This document shows positions 2,583 through 17,534 of a DNA stretch of 39,919 bases, in pieces. Each line of letters opens with the position of its first letter. Positions within the stretch are counted from its first letter, which is position 1. Source of the DNA: Escherichia phage EG1; the sequence record MG488277. The stretch is one strand, 5' to 3'. The notes under the pieces were generated by a model. It had not been told where the DNA came from, did not search any database, and worked only from the letters and a program-made list of their open reading frames with translations. The position numbers and the translations under genes were made by a program.

Positions 2583-3671
2583 ATGCACAAAGTGAACGCT
2601 ATCGACATCATGAACGCTATCAACGCAATCAAAGCACTGCCAATCTGTGAACTTGATAAGCGTCAAAGTATGCTCATTGATTTGCTGGTCGAGATGGTCA
2701 ACAACGAAACGTGTGACGGTGAAATCACCAAGCTGGATAAGCCGCTTGAATATCAGGACTGGTGGACTACCTTAAGAGGTCTCACTACTGACGCTGGCTT
2801 CACGATGCTCGGTAATGGTCACTTCTCTGCTGCATATAGTCACCCACTGCTGCCTAACAGAGTGATTAAGGTGGGCTTTAAGAAAGAGGATTCAGGCGCT
2901 GCGTATATCGCATTCTGCCGCATGTATCAGGGCCGCGCTGGTATCCCTAACGTCTACGACGTTCAGCGTCATTCTGGCTGCTATACGGTGGTTCTTGATG
3001 CTCTGAATGAATGTGAGCGAGAGGATAACTATGAGCACGACAAATACGCTGAGATTGCAAGCGACATCATTGACTGCAACTCTGATATGCACGATTGGCG
3101 TGGCGGATGGGTTGGGGAGTTCGTCGAAACTTGCAAACTAATCCGCAAGTTCTTTGAGGGCATCGCTTCGTTTGACATGCACAGCGGTAACATCATGTTC
3201 GACGATAATGACGTACCGTACATTACCGACCCGGTGTCATTCTCACAGAAGAAAGACGGTGGCGCTTTCAGCATGGACCCTGAGGAACTCATCAAGGAAG
3301 TCGAGGAAGTCGCACGACAGAAAGAAATTGACCGCGCCAAGGAGCGTAAAGCACGCCATGTAGCACGCTTAGAGGTGCGCAGAATCAAACGCCGTAGACG
3401 CAAGGCACGTAAAGCACACATAGCTAAGCGTGAACGAATGGCGGCCCAGTGGCGCATGAACGAGCGTCGAGAACGTCGTAACCATGAGGTAGCTGTAGAT
3501 GTACTAGGAAGAACCAATAACGCTATGCTCTGGGCGCACATGTTCGCGGGGGACTTTAAGGCGCTTGAGGAACGAATCGCAGCGCACTGGTTCCAAGCTG
3601 ACCGCATGGCCATAGCTAATGGTCTTCAGCTCAACATTGATAAGAAACTGGACGCAATGCTAATGGGATGA
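2583..3671 (+). CDS. 0.7: Ser/Thr protein kinase and host-shutoff protein (gene 0.7)
   Basis: 362 aa; ...[21 protein letters not shown]...[32 protein letters not shown]... matches T7 gp0.7; exact start uncertain. Confidence 0.9.
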
Positions 3672-3741: not shown

Positions 3742-6393
3742 ATGAGCACGATTAACATCGCTAAGAACGATTTCTCTGACATCGAACTGGCTGCTATCCC
3801 GTTCAACACTCTGGCTGACCACTATGGTGAGCGTCTAGCTCGCGAGCAGTTGGCCCTTGAGCATGAGTCTTACGAGATGGGCGAGGCACGTTTCCGCAAG
3901 ATGTTTGAGCGTCAACTTAAGGCCGGTGAGGTTGCAGACAATGCGGCTGCTAAACCACTGATTACTACTCTGCTGCCTAAGATGGTTGCACGCATCAACG
4001 ACTGGTTTGAGGAAGTGAAGGCCAAGCGTGGCAAACGTCCAACCGCTTTCCAGTTTCTGCAAGGAATCAAGCCGGAATCTGTAGCATATATCACCATCAA
4101 GACTACTCTTGCTTGTCTGACGAGCGTGGACAATACAACCGTTCAGGCTGTAGCAAGCGCCATCGGACGGGCTATCGAGGAAGAGGCTCGCTTCGGTCGA
4201 ATCCGTGACCTAGAAGCTAAGCACTTCAAGAAAAACGTTGAGGAACAACTAAACAAGCGCGTAGGGCACGTCTATAAGAAGGCATTCATGCAGGTAGTCG
4301 AGGCCGATATGCTCTCTAAGGGTCTACTCGGTGGCGAGGCGTGGTCTTCGTGGCACAAGGAAGACTCCATTCACGTAGGGGTGCGCTGCATTGAGATGCT
4401 CATTGAGTCAACCGGAATGGTTAGCCTTCACCGCCAAAACGCTGGCGTAGTGGGACAAGACTCTGAGACTATCGAGCTGGCACACGAATACGCTGAGGCT
4501 ATCGCAACACGGGCTGGGGCACTGGCTGGTATCTCTCCGATGTATCAGCCTTGCATAGTACCGCCTAAACCTTGGACTGGTGTAACTGGTGGCGGATACT
4601 GGGCTAACGGTCGCCGTCCGCTGGTACTGGTACGCACCCACAGCAAGAAGGCACTGATGCGCTACGAAGATGTTTACATGCCTGAGGTATACAAGGCGAT
4701 CAACATTGCGCAAAACACCGCTTGGAAAATCAACAAGAAAGTCCTAGCGGTCGCCAACGTGATAACCAAGTGGAAGCACTGCCCGGTCGAGGACATCCCA
4801 GCGATTGAGCGCGAAGAACTCCCGATGAAACCGGAAGACATCGACACGAATCCAGAGGCGCTGACCGCTTGGAAACGTGCTGCTGCCGCTGTGTACCGTA
4901 AAGACAAGGCCCGTAAGTCTCGCCGCATAAGCCTTGAGTTCATGCTTGAGCAAGCCAACAAGTTTGCTAACCGTAAGGCCATCTGGTTCCCTTACAACAT
5001 GGACTGGCGCGGTCGTGTGTACGCTGTGTCAATGTTCAATCCGCAAGGTAACGACATGACAAAAGGTCTGCTGACACTGGCTAAGGGTAAGCCAATCGGC
5101 AAGGAAGGATTCTACTGGCTGAAAATTCACGGTGCTAACTGCGCGGGGGTCGATAAGGTTCCATTCCCTGAGCGCATCAAGTTTATTGAGGACAACCACG
5201 ATAACATCATGGCTTGTGCTAAGTCCCCACTGGAGCACACTTGGTGGGCTGAGCAAGATTCTCCGTTCTGTTTCCTCGCGTTCTGCTTTGAGTACGCTGG
5301 GGTACAGCACCACGGACTGAGCTACAACTGCTCGCTGCCACTGGCGTTCGATGGGTCTTGCTCTGGCATCCAGCACTTCTCCGCAATGCTCCGCGATGAA
5401 GTAGGCGGTCGTGCTGTTAACCTGCTGCCTAGCGAAACCGTTCAGGACATCTACGGGATTGTTGCTAAGAAAGTAAACGAGATTCTGCAAGCTGATGTAA
5501 TCAACGGGACCGATAACGAAGTAGTTACCGTGACCGATGAGAACACTGGGGAAATCTCTGAGAAAATCAAGCTGGGTACTAAAGCACTGGCTGGTCAATG
5601 GTTGGCCTACGGTGTGACCCGTAGCGTCACTAAGCGTTCAGTCATGACGCTGGCCTATGGCTCCAAAGAGTTCGGCTTCCGTCAACAAGTCCTTGAGGAC
5701 ACCATACAGCCAGCTATTGATTCAGGCAAAGGTCTGATGTTTACCCAACCTAATCAGGCCGCTGGGTATATGGCTAAGCTGATCTGGGAGTCAGTGAGCG
5801 TTACCGTAGTGGCTGCTGTAGAGGCTATGAACTGGCTTAAGTCTGCTGCGAAGCTGCTGGCTGCTGAGGTCAAAGACAAGAAGACTGGTGAGATTCTCCG
5901 TAAACGCTGTGCGGTGTATTGGGTAACTCCTGATGGCTTCCCTGTGTGGCAAGAATACAAGAAGCCAATTCAGACTCGCTTGAACTTGATGTTCCTCGGT
6001 CAGTTCCGCTTACAGCCGACCATCAACACCAACAAGGACAGCGAGATTGATGCTCATAAGCAGGAATCTGGTATAGCTCCTAACTTTGTACACAGCCAAG
6101 ACGGTAGCCACCTACGTAAGACTGTAGTGTGGGCGCACGAGAAGTACGGCATCGAATCTTTTGCACTGATTCATGACTCCTTCGGGACCATTCCGGCTGA
6201 TGCTGCCAACCTATTCAAGGCTGTTCGTGAGACTATGGTTGACACCTACGAGTCCTGCGATGTGCTTGCTGACTTCTACAACCAGTTCGCTGACCAGTTA
6301 CATGAGTCTCAATTGGATAAAATGCCAGCACTCCCAGCTAAAGGTAACTTGAATTTACGAGACATCTTAGAGTCAGACTTCGCGTTTGCGTAA
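3742..6393 (+). CDS. 1: Single-subunit DNA-dependent RNA polymerase (gene 1)
   Basis: 883 aa, near-identical to T7 RNAP as I recall it (same length, ...ILESDFAFA C-terminus). Confidence 0.98.
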   Translation: MSTINIAKNDFSDIELAAIPFNTLADHYGERLAREQLALEHESYEMGEARFRKMFERQLKAGEVADNAAAKPLITTLLPKMVARINDWFEEVKAKRGKRPTAFQFLQGIKPESVAYITIKTTLACLTSVDNTTVQAVASAIGRAIEEEARFGRIRDLEAKHFKKNVEEQLNKRVGHVYKKAFMQVVEADMLSKGLLGGEAWSSWHKEDSIHVGVRCIEMLIESTGMVSLHRQNAGVVGQDSETIELAHEYAEAIATRAGALAGISPMYQPCIVPPKPWTGVTGGGYWANGRRPLVLVRTHSKKALMRYEDVYMPEVYKAINIAQNTAWKINKKVLAVANVITKWKHCPVEDIPAIEREELPMKPEDIDTNPEALTAWKRAAAAVYRKDKARKSRRISLEFMLEQANKFANRKAIWFPYNMDWRGRVYAVSMFNPQGNDMTKGLLTLAKGKPIGKEGFYWLKIHGANCAGVDKVPFPERIKFIEDNHDNIMACAKSPLEHTWWAEQDSPFCFLAFCFEYAGVQHHGLSYNCSLPLAFDGSCSGIQHFSAMLRDEVGGRAVNLLPSETVQDIYGIVAKKVNEILQADVINGTDNEVVTVTDENTGEISEKIKLGTKALAGQWLAYGVTRSVTKRSVMTLAYGSKEFGFRQQVLEDTIQPAIDSGKGLMFTQPNQAAGYMAKLIWESVSVTVVAAVEAMNWLKSAAKLLAAEVKDKKTGEILRKRCAVYWVTPDGFPVWQEYKKPIQTRLNLMFLGQFRLQPTINTNKDSEIDAHKQESGIAPNFVHSQDGSHLRKTVVWAHEKYGIESFALIHDSFGTIPADAANLFKAVRETMVDTYESCDVLADFYNQFADQLHESQLDKMPALPAKGNLNLRDILESDFAFA

Positions 6394-14451: not shown

Positions 14452-16608
14452 ATGATCGTTTCTGACATCGAAGCTAACGCCCTCTTAGAGAGCGTCACTA
14501 AGTTCCACTGCGGGGTTATCTACGACTACTCCACCGCTGAGTACGTAAGCTACCGTCCGAGTGACTTCGGTGCGTATCTGGATGCGCTGGAAGCCGAGGT
14601 TGCACGAGGCGGTCTTATTGTGTTTCACAACGGCCACAAGTATGACGTTCCTGCATTGACCAAACTGGCAAAGTTGCAATTGAACCGAGAGTTCCACCTT
14701 CCTCGTGAGAACTGTATCGACACACTTGTGTTGTCACGCTTGATTCACTCCAACCTGAAAGACACCGATATGGGTCTTCTGCGTTCCGGTAAGTTGCCCG
14801 GTAAACGCTTTGGGTCTCACGCTTTGGAGGCGTGGGGCTATCGCTTAGGTGAAATGAAGGGTGAATACAAGGATGACTTTAAGCGTATGCTTGAAGAGCA
14901 AGGTGAAGAATACGTTGACGGAATGGAATGGTGGAACTTCAACGAAGAGATGATGACCTATAACGTTCAGGACGTTGTGGTCACTAAGGCTCTCCTTGAG
15001 AAGCTGCTCTCTGACAAACATTACTTCCCTCCTGAGATTGACTTTACGGACGTAGGATACACTACGTTCTGGTCAGAATCCCTTGAGGCCGTTGACGTTG
15101 AACATCGCGCTGCGTGGCTACTCGCTAAGCAAGAGCGCAATGGATTCCCGTTTGACACGAAAGCAATCGAAGAGTTGTACGTAGAGTTAGCTGCTCGTCG
15201 CTCAGAGTTGCTGCGTAAGCTGACCGAAACGTTCGGCTCGTGGTATCAGCCTAAAGGTGGCACCGAAATGTTCTGCCATCCGAGGACTGGTAAGCCACTG
15301 CCTAAATACCCTCGCATTAAGACACCTAAAGTTGGTGGTATCTTTAAGAAGCCTAAGAACAAGGCACAACGAGAAGGCCGTGAGCCTTGCGAACTGGATA
15401 CCCGCGAGTACGTTGCTGGTGCCCCCTATACTCCGGTAGAGCACGTAGTGTTTAACCCTTCGTCTCGTGACCACATCCAGAAGAAACTCCAAGAGGCTGG
15501 ATGGGTCCCCACGAAGTACACCGATAAGGGTGCGCCTGTGGTGGACGATGAGGTCCTAGAGGGAGTAAAAGTAGATGACCCTGAGAAGCAAGCCGCTATC
15601 GATCTTATTAAAGAATACTTGATGATTCAGAAGCGAATCGGACAGTCTGCTGAGGGAGACAAGGCGTGGCTTCGTTACGTTGCTGAGGATGGTAAAATTC
15701 ATGGTTCTGTTAATCCCAACGGCGCTGTTACTGGGCGCGCTACTCACGCTTTCCCTAACCTTGCACAGATACCCGGTGTCCGCTCTCCTTATGGTGATCG
15801 GTGCCGCTCTGCTTTTGGCGCTGAACATCACCTAGACGGACTTACAGGTAAGCCTTGGGTTCAAGCTGGTATAGACGCCTCTGGTCTGGAGCTGCGATGC
15901 TTGGCCCACTTCATGGCTCGCTTTGACAACGGTGAGTATGCTCACGAGATTCTAAACGGTGACATCCACTGGAAGAACGCAATTGCTGCTGACTTAGCAC
16001 CAAACATTGCTCGTGATAAGCATAATAAGGAACACGACCTAATGCGTGATAACGCCAAGACGTTTATCTATGGGTTCCTCTATGGTGCTGGCGATGAGAA
16101 GACTGGTCAGATTGTAGGTGCTGGTAAAGAACGTGGTAAGGAACTCAAGAAGAAATTCCTTGAGAACACCCCAGCTATTGCTGCACTACGAGAGTCTATC
16201 CAACAGACACTTGTTGAGTCCTCTCAGTGGGTAGCTGGTGAACAGCAAGTCAAGTGGAAACGTCGCTGGATTAAAGGTCTGGATGGTCGTAAGGTACACG
16301 TCCGTAGTCCTCACGCTGCCCTGAATACCCTGCTGCAATCTGCTGGTGCTCTAATCTGCAAACTGTGGATTATCAAGACAGAAGAGATGCTCGTGGAGAA
16401 AGGCTTGAAGCATGGTTGGGATGGGGACTTTGCGTACATGGCATGGGTCCACGATGAGATTCAGGTAGGTTGTCGTACCGAAGAGATTGCTCAGGTGGTC
16501 ATTGAGACTGCACAGGAAGCGATGCGCTGGGTAGGAGACCACTGGAACTTCCGGTGTCTTCTGGATACCGAAGGTAAGATTGGTCCTAATTGGGCCGTAT
16601 GTCACTAA
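14452..16608 (+). CDS. 5: DNA polymerase (gene 5), family A with 3'-5' exonuclease and thioredoxin-binding loop
   Basis: 718 aa; [27 protein letters not shown]...; near-identical to T7 gp5 except a ~14-aa insertion before the O-helix. Confidence 0.97.
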
Positions 16609-16627
16609 TTCTAACAGGAGCCACTTT

Positions 16628-16855
16628 ATGGCATGGCGATATAGGATTCGAGAAGTCAGAATGACTACAGGTGAGACCTTATACTACCCACAGTTCCGTC
16701 ATGTGTGGCTCCCATTCTGGTGCCACTTTAGGGACTACCTAGAAGAACGTAAGGTGTCATTCACCTATTATTCTGATGCGCTTGAATTCGTTAATGAATG
16801 TAAATCAAATGATGAACCAGAAGTAAAGCAGGTTGTAAGAAACCACTATCTTTAA
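16628..16855 (+). CDS. Hypothetical protein at gene 5.3 position
   Basis: 75 aa from ATG 16628 (MAWRYRIREVRMTTGETLYYPQFRHVW...), SD caggag; shorter than T7 gp5.3. Confidence 0.55.
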   Translation: MAWRYRIREVRMTTGETLYYPQFRHVWLPFWCHFRDYLEERKVSFTYYSDALEFVNECKSNDEPEVKQVVRNHYL

Positions 16856-16867
16856 GGAGAAATTATT

Positions 16868-17167
16868 ATGGCTATGACCAAGAAATTTAAAGTGTCCTTC
16901 GACGTTACCGCTAAGATGACATCTGACGTTCAGGCAATCTTAGAGAAAGATATGCTGCACCTGTGTAAGCAGGTTGGCTCCGGTGCTATTGTTCCTAACG
17001 GCAAGCAGAAAGAGATGATTGTTCAGTTCCTGACCCATGGTATGGAAGGAGTGATGGCCTTCATTGTGCGAACGTCTTTCCGCGAGGCTATCAAGGAAAT
17101 GCACGAAGAGTATGCCGATAAGGACTCCTTCAAGCTATCTCCTGCAACTGTACGGGAGGTGTTCTAA
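16868..17167 (+). CDS. 5.5: gp5.5 (H-NS-binding protein in T7)
   Basis: 99 aa MAMTKKFKVSFDVTAKMTSDVQAILEKDMLH... Confidence 0.9.
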   Translation: MAMTKKFKVSFDVTAKMTSDVQAILEKDMLHLCKQVGSGAIVPNGKQKEMIVQFLTHGMEGVMAFIVRTSFREAIKEMHEEYADKDSFKLSPATVREVF

Positions 17168-17376
17168 TGTCAGACTATCTGAAAGTGCTGCAAGCAATCA
17201 AAAGTTGCCCTAAGACTTTCCAGTCCAACTATGTACGGAACAATGCGAGCCTCGTAGCGGAGGCCGCTTCCCGTGGTCACATCTCATGTCTGACCACAAG
17301 TGGACGAAACGGTGGCGCTTGGGAAATCACTGCTTCTGGTACTCGCTTTCTGAAACGAATGGGAGGATGTGTCTAA
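17167..17376 (+). CDS. 5.7: gp5.7-like protein
   Basis: 69 aa, ATG overlaps preceding stop. Confidence 0.85.
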   Translation: MSDYLKVLQAIKSCPKTFQSNYVRNNASLVAEAASRGHISCLTTSGRNGGAWEITASGTRFLKRMGGCV

Positions 17377-17534
17377 TGGTGCGTGACACTGTAACAATTC
17401 CTCGTGATGCGTGGAACGATATGCAGGGTTATATTGCTTCTCTGGAACGTGAGAACGATAGCCTTAAGAACCAACTTATGGAAGCTGACGAATACGTGGC
17501 TGAACTAGAGGAGAAACTTAATGGCGCTTCTTGA
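17376..17534 (+). CDS. 5.9: gp5.9 (RecBCD inhibitor in T7)
   Basis: 52 aa MVRDTVTIPRDAWNDMQGYIASLERENDSLKNQLMEADEYVAELEEKLNGAS. Confidence 0.85.
   Translation: MVRDTVTIPRDAWNDMQGYIASLERENDSLKNQLMEADEYVAELEEKLNGAS

Follow-up and report, generated by a model that had tools for sequence, protein, structure and literature searches.

The 75-codon open reading frame (ORF) between gene 5, which encodes the DNA polymerase, and gene 5.5 of Escherichia phage EG1 is, on comparative grounds, a genuine gene. Judged by its sequence context, it is an expressed-looking accessory gene of class II, the DNA-metabolism period, and its product carries no recognisable enzymatic motif. By alignment and profile comparison it is unrelated to gp5.3, the protein encoded at the same place in T7. 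The gene and its initiation region form a discrete cassette that is shared by several genera of T7-like phages. The product is tentatively predicted to be a small, non-enzymatic binder of a host macromolecule. Taken as a whole, with the gene, the cassette and the proposed function together, this explanation is held with moderate confidence, somewhat on the favourable side of even.

The window analysed here is the whole stretch of EG1 DNA, 39,919 nucleotides long (record MG488277) and read 5' to 3' on one strand; all the features located below lie on that (+) strand. The genome is T7-like (Teseptimavirus-type) and is at most about 94% identical to the records of the phage collection, the best of which is Yersinia phage vB_YenP_WW2. 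The ORF occupies positions 16628..16855 and consists of 75 codons and a stop, with the ATG at 16628 and the TAA at 16853-16855. AGGAG at 16616-16620, 7 nt 5' of the ATG, is the ribosome-binding site (RBS). The predicted product has a mass of 9.5 kDa and a pI of 6.8, and 20% of its residues are aromatic (7 Y, 5 F and 3 W). At 41.2%, the GC content of the ORF is below that of the genome (48.5%), and its GC3 of 0.41 is likewise lower than those of genes 5, 5.5 and 6 (0.52-0.58). Scans of the product against Pfam, NCBIfam and PADLOC gave no match. An earlier sequence-only reading had described an aromatic-rich ORF of 75 aa with a good RBS and no nuclease motif, and all of this is borne out, including the translation that it quoted.

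The public annotation of EG1 contains a 64-aa "hypothetical protein" (P0089), which corresponds to residues 12-75 of the ORF. The apparent start in the RefSeq annotation is the internal ATG of Met12, at 16661..16663. Met12 is unlikely to be the true start, and the RefSeq start probably lies 11 codons too late, because a strong RBS precedes the ATG at 16628 and because residues 1-11 include Y5 and R6, which vary little or not at all among 72 family members.

The predicted protein is a member of PHROG 18049, a group labelled as of unknown function, and matches its profile of 75 positions from end to end (E 1.6e-52), residues 1-75 falling on positions 1-75. A tblastn search found full-length copies in no fewer than 29 phage records. 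In the protein databases there are ten related clusters of 74-75 aa, at 57-96% identity and with 21 invariant columns, and an identical protein is encoded in eight public metagenome contigs, in the same slot in every one. The dN/dS ratio, calculated by the Nei-Gojobori method, is 0.09-0.14 against ZCEA1, P483, Dev2 and phiKp_31; against BP12A pN is only 0.064, with the synonymous sites saturated (pS 0.84). Judged by these values, the gene is under strong purifying selection. The end-to-end profile match, the slot shared in at least 29 records and the low dN/dS are the reasons for regarding the ORF as a real gene.

The relatives of the protein extend well beyond the T7-like phages. A profile search of 1.8 billion representative proteins gave 23 proteins at E <= 1e-3, and iteration with the alignment enlarged the set to 71 clusters, here called the KYRI-YYPQ family. 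Nearly all its members are 52-93 aa long; two are larger, with 121 aa and 241 aa. In the family motif (K)YR[IV] is followed, after 6-12 residues, by YYPQ; beyond this lie an FW segment of aromatic character, a V-x-F strand and a helix of the form (E)A-x-x-[FY]-I. Across the superfamily R6, P21, Q22, W31 and A51 are invariant, and Y5 and Y20 are nearly so. The members are spread over seven PHROGs, all labelled as of unknown function, and the genes are carried by rV5-like, T4-like, marine and other large phages, where they lie among small early genes. A degenerate DNA pattern was found at six viral loci and in 3 of 185,579 prokaryotic species genomes, all three of them metagenome bins. On this sampling the family is essentially restricted to phages. 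By profile relationship, it is a superfamily of small phage proteins of 60-100 aa, in which PHROG 18049 represents the T7-like branch.

The genes found near the family members in large phages encode DnaB, a 5'-3' exonuclease, RNR, ThyX, dNMP kinase, an isochorismatase-like protein and NUDIX proteins. Four large-phage loci (L012, L013, L032 and, in part, L030) share a block with dNMP-kinase, isochorismatase-like and small genes, and proteins of about 72 aa and about 100 aa are also encoded in that block near the family copies. When 12 distant loci were compared for guilt by association, no neighbour was conserved in all contexts. Tandem or nearby paralogues occur in large phages, at 779-1169 of L012, at 3905-4132 and 5467-5712 of L032, and at 4574-4759 and 5001-5240 of L014. 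In the 241-aa member (P0020) the family domain is fused C-terminally to about 165 residues that resemble, by eye, the N-terminus of a baseplate-J-like protein; the fusion could be an artefact of gene calling or assembly, or an insertion into a structural gene.

The structure of the EG1 protein was predicted by AlphaFold2 from the 72-sequence alignment. The model is of moderate confidence (pLDDT 77, pTM 0.56) and contains a beta-hairpin (residues 4-11/17-24), short strand contacts in 32-45 and a helix (48-62); the pLDDT of the C-terminal tail is below 50. A Foldseek search of the PDB with this model gave nothing better than E 0.76, and a structure search of BFVD returned only uncharacterised phage proteins. 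The best match in a profile search of PDB sequences, AcrIIA13, has an E value of 0.6 and is not significant. These Foldseek and profile searches found no solved structural relative of the KYRI-YYPQ family, and a PADLOC scan of six relatives gave no match.

The slot occupied by the ORF is bounded by two conserved genes. On its left is gene 5 (14452..16608), encoding a DNA polymerase of 718 aa with 96% aa identity to T7 gp5, and on its right is the gene 5.5 homologue (16868..17167; PF11247, E 3.2e-65). The left junction, which contains the translation-initiation region of the cassette, occupies 16609..16627 and reads TTCTA followed by ACAGGAGCCACTTT, with the AGGAG inside it. Its first bases match the Teseptimavirus spacer (TAATTCTA...). 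The second part, ACAGGAGCCACTTTATG after TTCTA, is Berlinvirus-like: the stretch around the RBS resembles the corresponding sequences of Berlinvirus P483 and of CarlSpitteler (AGGAGGCCACTTATG, ACAGGAGGCCGCTTATG), and also the initiation region of T7 5.3 (ACAGGAGGCTACTCATG). These likenesses are short and only suggestive. Three variants of the left junction were seen, that of ZCEA1 with an initiation sequence of the gene 5.5 type, that of phiKp_31, which is a hybrid, and that of EG1.

At the right junction (16853..16872, TAAGGAGAAATTATTATGGC) the TAA of the ORF overlaps the RBS and start of gene 5.5. The stop codon lies within the gene 5.5 RBS (TAAGGAG...ATG) in EG1 and in most other copies; BP12A and CR8 are slightly different. 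Gene 5.5 would be translationally coupled to the ORF because of this overlap. The right junction also contains, at 16855-16872, one copy of an 18-nt repeat, AGGAGAAATTATTATGGC. In Erwinia phage ZCEA1 the ORF is bracketed by two perfect direct copies of this repeat, 240 nt apart, and phages with an empty slot have a single copy. The left copy in EG1, at 16616-16632, has diverged to AGGAGCCACTTTATGGC.

A scan for T7 promoters found 12 T7-type promoters in the genome, none of them (at up to 3 mismatches to the consensus) from about 11.6 kb to 18.5 kb, and the promoter and terminator scans of the slot gave nothing above chance. With no promoter in the slot, the 75-aa gene should therefore be co-transcribed with its class II neighbours, gene 5 and the 5.5-5.9 genes.

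Several minor variations were noted around the slot. In Cronobacter phage Dev2 gene 5 and the ORF are separated by 100 nt, and this spacer contains an unannotated, hydrophobic mini-ORF of 29 codons (MVYLWCLVPFVILWACTAFDNDGNDGYGN; Dev2 locus 598-700, read by eye), which overlaps the polymerase stop codon. One metagenome contig with the identical ORF has an extra ORF of 38 codons between genes 5.5 and 5.7 (3040-3156), a further micro-variation in the 5.5-5.7 gene block. The EG1 gene 5.9 homologue at 17286-17534 is listed as an ORF of 82 aa, of which only residues 31-82 are covered by the PHROG and Pfam matches; its true start is probably an internal ATG near 17376, which gives 52 aa as in T7. 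The EG1 polymerase differs from that of T7 by a 14-aa insertion and local divergence at about 15970-16045 (codons ~507-530; T7 HTKNQIAAELP--TRDNAKTF), a place that we take to be just N-terminal to the O-helix of T7 polymerase. The same allele is present in vB_Yep_9, 'Enterococcus' phage EFA-2, Cedecea phage Yanou and CICC 80001. A link between this insertion and the 75-aa ORF was considered and rejected: CICC 80001 has the insertion and an empty slot, and in metagenome contig L025 the ORF stands beside a polymerase of 704 aa.

The state of the slot in other phages was surveyed with the two flanks joined into a query of 784 nt. Most natural relatives have an empty slot, in which the matched span is about 785-789 nt (IME390, CICC 80001, YpsP-G, PVN09 and N30). 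The nearest relatives of EG1, namely WW2, IME390, CICC 80001 and YpsP-G, as well as most others, have flanks 90-98% identical to those of EG1 and an empty slot; in WW2 a spacer of 19 nt separates the stop codon of gene 5 from gene 5.5. The slot of wild-type T7 holds 5.3 (span 1152 nt), several laboratory T7 lines are without it (814 nt), and T7M has in the slot a gene labelled 'homing endonuclease'. The WX2-type phages have an empty slot and an HNH-containing insertion that leaves gene 5 split, about 47 codons short of its end. The same split was seen in Q5, pO111, JeanTinguely, MeretOppenheim and metagenome contig L026. The insertion, which carries an HNH-type ORF and looks intron-like, is absent from EG1. 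In Yersinia phage WX2 (677-1410) the split gene is annotated as three separate 'DNA polymerase' CDSs.

The ORF itself is found in the same slot in five genera of the Studiervirinae (Teseptimavirus, Berlinvirus, Kayfunavirus, Caroctavirus and Teetrevirus), and the gene 5 and gene 5.5 neighbours are kept in ZCEA1, BP12A, Dev2, CR8, P483, CarlSpitteler, K12P1.1, phiKp_31, CQ615 and NC-A. CQ615 and NC-A carry a divergent allele with 48-53% aa identity to the EG1 protein, depending on the alignment; the NC-A gene has no annotation at all. A still more distant homologue (P0029, with an alignment-dependent aa identity of about 28-37%) lies behind the polymerase gene in the same slot of another T7-like contig. 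The arrangement is already known, and the gene is catalogued as a hypothetical protein, with the names gp5.1 in Cronobacter phage Dev2 and 5.01 in Citrobacter phage CR8. Because the closest relatives of EG1 have an empty slot, the EG1 slot was shaped by gain or loss of the cassette, not by its exchange with 5.3.

The boundaries of the cassette were mapped by sliding-window nucleotide identity against P483, Dev2, CarlSpitteler, WW2 and CQ615. For the Berlinvirus and Kayfunavirus phages P483, Dev2 and CarlSpitteler the identity is 0.57-0.87 in the final ~600 nt of gene 5; in the ORF it is 0.90-0.93 for the first ~150 nt and 0.78-0.82 for the remainder; and in gene 5.5 it is 0.47-0.73. WW2 has no ORF, and its identity to EG1 is 0.82-1.0 in the last ~600 nt of gene 5 (0.88-1.0 up to the stop codon) and 0.92-1.0 in gene 5.5. 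CQ615 shows the opposite pattern to that of the first three phages, with 0.77-0.98 at the end of gene 5 (0.88-0.98 past the first window), 0.48-0.70 in the ORF and 0.87-1.0 in gene 5.5. Over whole segments, the ORF is 87% identical in nucleotides to those of P483 and Dev2, against 58-62% (and 23-43% in amino acids) for gene 5.5. In general, copies of the ORF in other genera are about 87-92% identical to that of EG1 but have flanks that reach only 50-75% identity, and the changes in identity are sharp at both ends of the ORF.

These profiles identify the ORF as a discrete mosaic cassette reaching from the gene 5 stop codon to the gene 5.5 RBS. Since the ORF is in some comparisons less and in others more divergent than its flanks, the pattern indicates lateral exchange of the cassette among the genera of the Studiervirinae. 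The family is long resident in the slot and has also been exchanged between lineages, and the EG1 feature is an instance of ordinary phage mosaicism. Gain of the cassette may have occurred by recombination in the conserved flanks or at microhomology in the initiation sequences. Loss would occur by deletion between the copies of AGGAGAAATTATTATGGC. This route is proposed because deletion between the ZCEA1 repeats, performed in silico, yields the empty-slot sequence of WW2 save two substitutions, and because T7 is classically known to lose sequence between short direct repeats.

For the function of the protein, a possible role, put forward tentatively, is that of a stoichiometric, non-enzymatic binder that would neutralise or redirect a host macromolecule, either in host take-over or in counter-defence. 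The host target would be bound through a small beta-sheet-plus-helix domain, and the gene would be dispensable on standard hosts. This role is favoured because the protein is small, has no catalytic motif and shares an operon with gp5.5, gp5.7 and gp5.9, which PHROG, Pfam and GenBank labels identify as small inhibitors of host proteins. It is also favoured because the gene, apparently dispensable and sporadic, is nevertheless under strong constraint and has recently passed between phages whose enterobacterial hosts differ. The existence of laboratory-evolved T7 lines without 5.3 was counted as a sign that the slot is dispensable. Two observations were counted against the role: the near-neutral pI of 6.8, which makes the protein no obvious DNA mimic, and the nucleotide-metabolism and replication genes around the large-phage members, which fit a function in phage DNA metabolism equally well. 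In the literature no functional study of the 75-aa family was found, and its sequence is absent from the supplements of a preprint on an accessory-gene screen. A more speculative extension, of low probability, is that the roughly 70 phage-restricted clusters, whose members often occur in several copies in large phages, represent a novel fold whose proteins inhibit a conserved bacterial factor or a defence system stoichiometrically. The T7-like branch would then be spreading laterally at present through the enterobacterial Studiervirinae by extending the host range.

The main rival to the host binder is a nucleic-acid-binding accessory factor that would assist phage replication, recombination or nucleotide metabolism and would not be directed at the host. 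The position of the gene directly behind that of the DNA polymerase, both in EG1 and beside P0029, is consistent with such a factor, as is the proximity of the large-phage members to the DnaB, 5'-3' exonuclease, RNR, ThyX, dNMP kinase and NUDIX genes. Arg, Tyr and Trp are abundant in the protein, and its hairpin bears the conserved residues Y5, R6, Y20 and Q22. The predicted fold has a weak likeness to nucleic-acid binders built of a beta-sheet and a helix, such as Pur-alpha, dsRBD and AP2, and to YegP. We regard this helper role as rather unlikely, though worth keeping in view beside the host binder.

A second alternative is that the ORF is a selfish passenger, of no use to the phage, that would spread by co-conversion as a homing endonuclease or intron, which sits in gene 5 about 47 codons from its end, invades further genomes. 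The intron site of WX2, JeanTinguely and pO111 is only about 150 nt upstream of the slot, and metagenome contig L026 has the identical ORF directly behind an intron-interrupted polymerase gene. However, gene 5 is uninterrupted in EG1 and in most carriers of the ORF, and the slot is empty in phages that carry the intron, WX2 among them. The rise in identity to the donor-like phages comes at the boundary of the ORF instead of within the final 150 nt of gene 5, and strong purifying selection is not expected of a passenger without function. Such an origin is improbable.

Homologues of the protein in ErnstBeyeler, CarlSpitteler, CQ615 and WW1 are labelled 'putative homing endonuclease' in GenBank (the labelled records are MZ501064, MZ501055, PQ010280 and OP161218), and UniRef carries the label 'Homing endonuclease'. 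The protein might accordingly be taken for such an enzyme or for the surviving DNA-binding module of one, all the more as the slot holds nuclease-like genes elsewhere (gp5.3 in T7, the 'homing endonuclease' of T7M) and as the cassette is low in GC, patchy in distribution and laterally transferred. The protein, however, has only 75 aa, and a Pfam scan of 26 relatives found an HNH, GIY-YIG, LAGLIDADG, PD-(D/E)XK or AP2 domain in none of them. Comparison by hhalign with the HNH ORF in the WX2 polymerase gene gave a probability of 0.5%, and the invariant R6, P21, Q22, W31 and A51 form no metal-binding or catalytic constellation. An endonuclease or its remnant is therefore very unlikely, and the labels appear to have been transferred by position.

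T7 does have, as the sequence-only reading stated, a gp5.3 of 118 aa between the DNA polymerase and gp5.5. This protein matches PF11645 (PD-(D/E)XK_5; E 1.1e-10, Pfam); in RefSeq it is labelled 'hypothetical protein' despite the match (T7 locus 2484-2840). The earlier reading had named alignment with a truncated gp5.3 as the outcome that would turn its proposed module replacement into a simple deletion. No such alignment was found: the sole BLASTP match, of 11 residues at E 0.06, is attributable to chance, and comparison of the profile of the 72 family sequences with gp5.3 by hhalign gave a probability of 4.9%. The shared slot and a local 'G-T-(V/L)-YYP' likeness over 11-21 residues are what a truncated or degenerate gene 5.3 has in its favour. 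Against it, the 75-aa protein matches no Pfam model, DNA similarity to T7 is gone across the entire slot (it stops at the gene 5 stop codon and restarts at AGGAGAAATTATTATG before gene 5.5), and the ORF belongs to a distinct family of 75-aa proteins that is under purifying selection, so that derivation from the PD-(D/E)XK protein by simple deletion is hardly credible and is already refuted at the level of sequence. The idea of a module replacement holds in so far as the two genes are unrelated and are, across genomes, alternative cargos of one slot; for EG1 it gives way to gain or loss, since the slot of the nearest relatives is empty. That the ORF is no gene at all has a negligible probability: ORFs of like length are common in the genome, with many spurious ones of 30-180 aa in the same region, and 75 codons is by itself within chance, but the comparative data (family, synteny and dN/dS) already refute this reading, and the good RBS and the lack of a competing ORF of at least 30 aa on the opposite strand also stand against it.

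The practical value of these findings is modest. What is new is the probable correction of the start codon in the public EG1 annotation by 11 codons, the lack of support for the 'putative homing endonuclease' label on several homologues, the cassette slot with its repeat-bounded junctions and the wider phage-only superfamily. The junction of genes 5 and 5.5 is a clean plug-in slot that can be empty or can hold gp5.3 or either of two divergent alleles of the 75-aa ORF; it is useful for T7 engineering and offers a small, well-bounded case of cassette exchange at translation-initiation sequences. The uncharacterised superfamily is a reasonable candidate for phage accessory-gene screens. If the protein were a factor of counter-defence or take-over, the T7 toolkit would gain a further small inhibitor, and the concepts would stay unchanged.

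Among known systems, the closest to the EG1 gene are the other members of PHROG 18049 (Dev2 gp5.1, CR8 5.01, BP12A_20A and P483_19, each a 'hypothetical protein'), which have 75 aa, 67-92% aa identity and the same position. The backbone around the EG1 copy is that of a Teseptimavirus, while the annotated copies belong mostly to Berlinvirus or Kayfunavirus; apart from this and its hybrid upstream initiation region, it has no substantive difference from them. Like the 75-aa ORF, T7 gene 5.3 occupies the slot between genes 5 and 5.5, but the two products have no similarity in sequence or profile and that of the ORF is without a nuclease domain. A similar upstream initiation sequence may be common to both genes. 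T7 gene 5.3 is reported to be non-essential and has been used as an insertion site (bioRxiv 10.1101/2024.11.17.624010); the 75-aa ORF is missing from most close relatives.

For the YegP/UPF0339 (DUF1508) proteins and the small PH-like beta-sheet-plus-helix domains the scores are below a convincing level; the Pfam scan of 26 family members gave no match, and Foldseek nothing significant. The deletions between short repeats seen in T7 are paralleled by the ZCEA1 cassette with its perfect 18-nt repeat, of which the empty-slot phages carry exactly one copy. Unlike that of ZCEA1, the left repeat of EG1 has decayed, and excision here is putative. The proposed mode of action is modelled on gp5.5, gp5.7 and gp5.9, which are directed at H-NS, sigma-S RNA polymerase and RecBCD, respectively. 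These proteins have no homology to the 75-aa protein and are nearly universal in the relatives, whereas the ORF is sporadic. They nevertheless belong to the same operon and expression class, have 52-99 aa and contain no enzymatic domain, and it is in this manner that the 75-aa protein may act.
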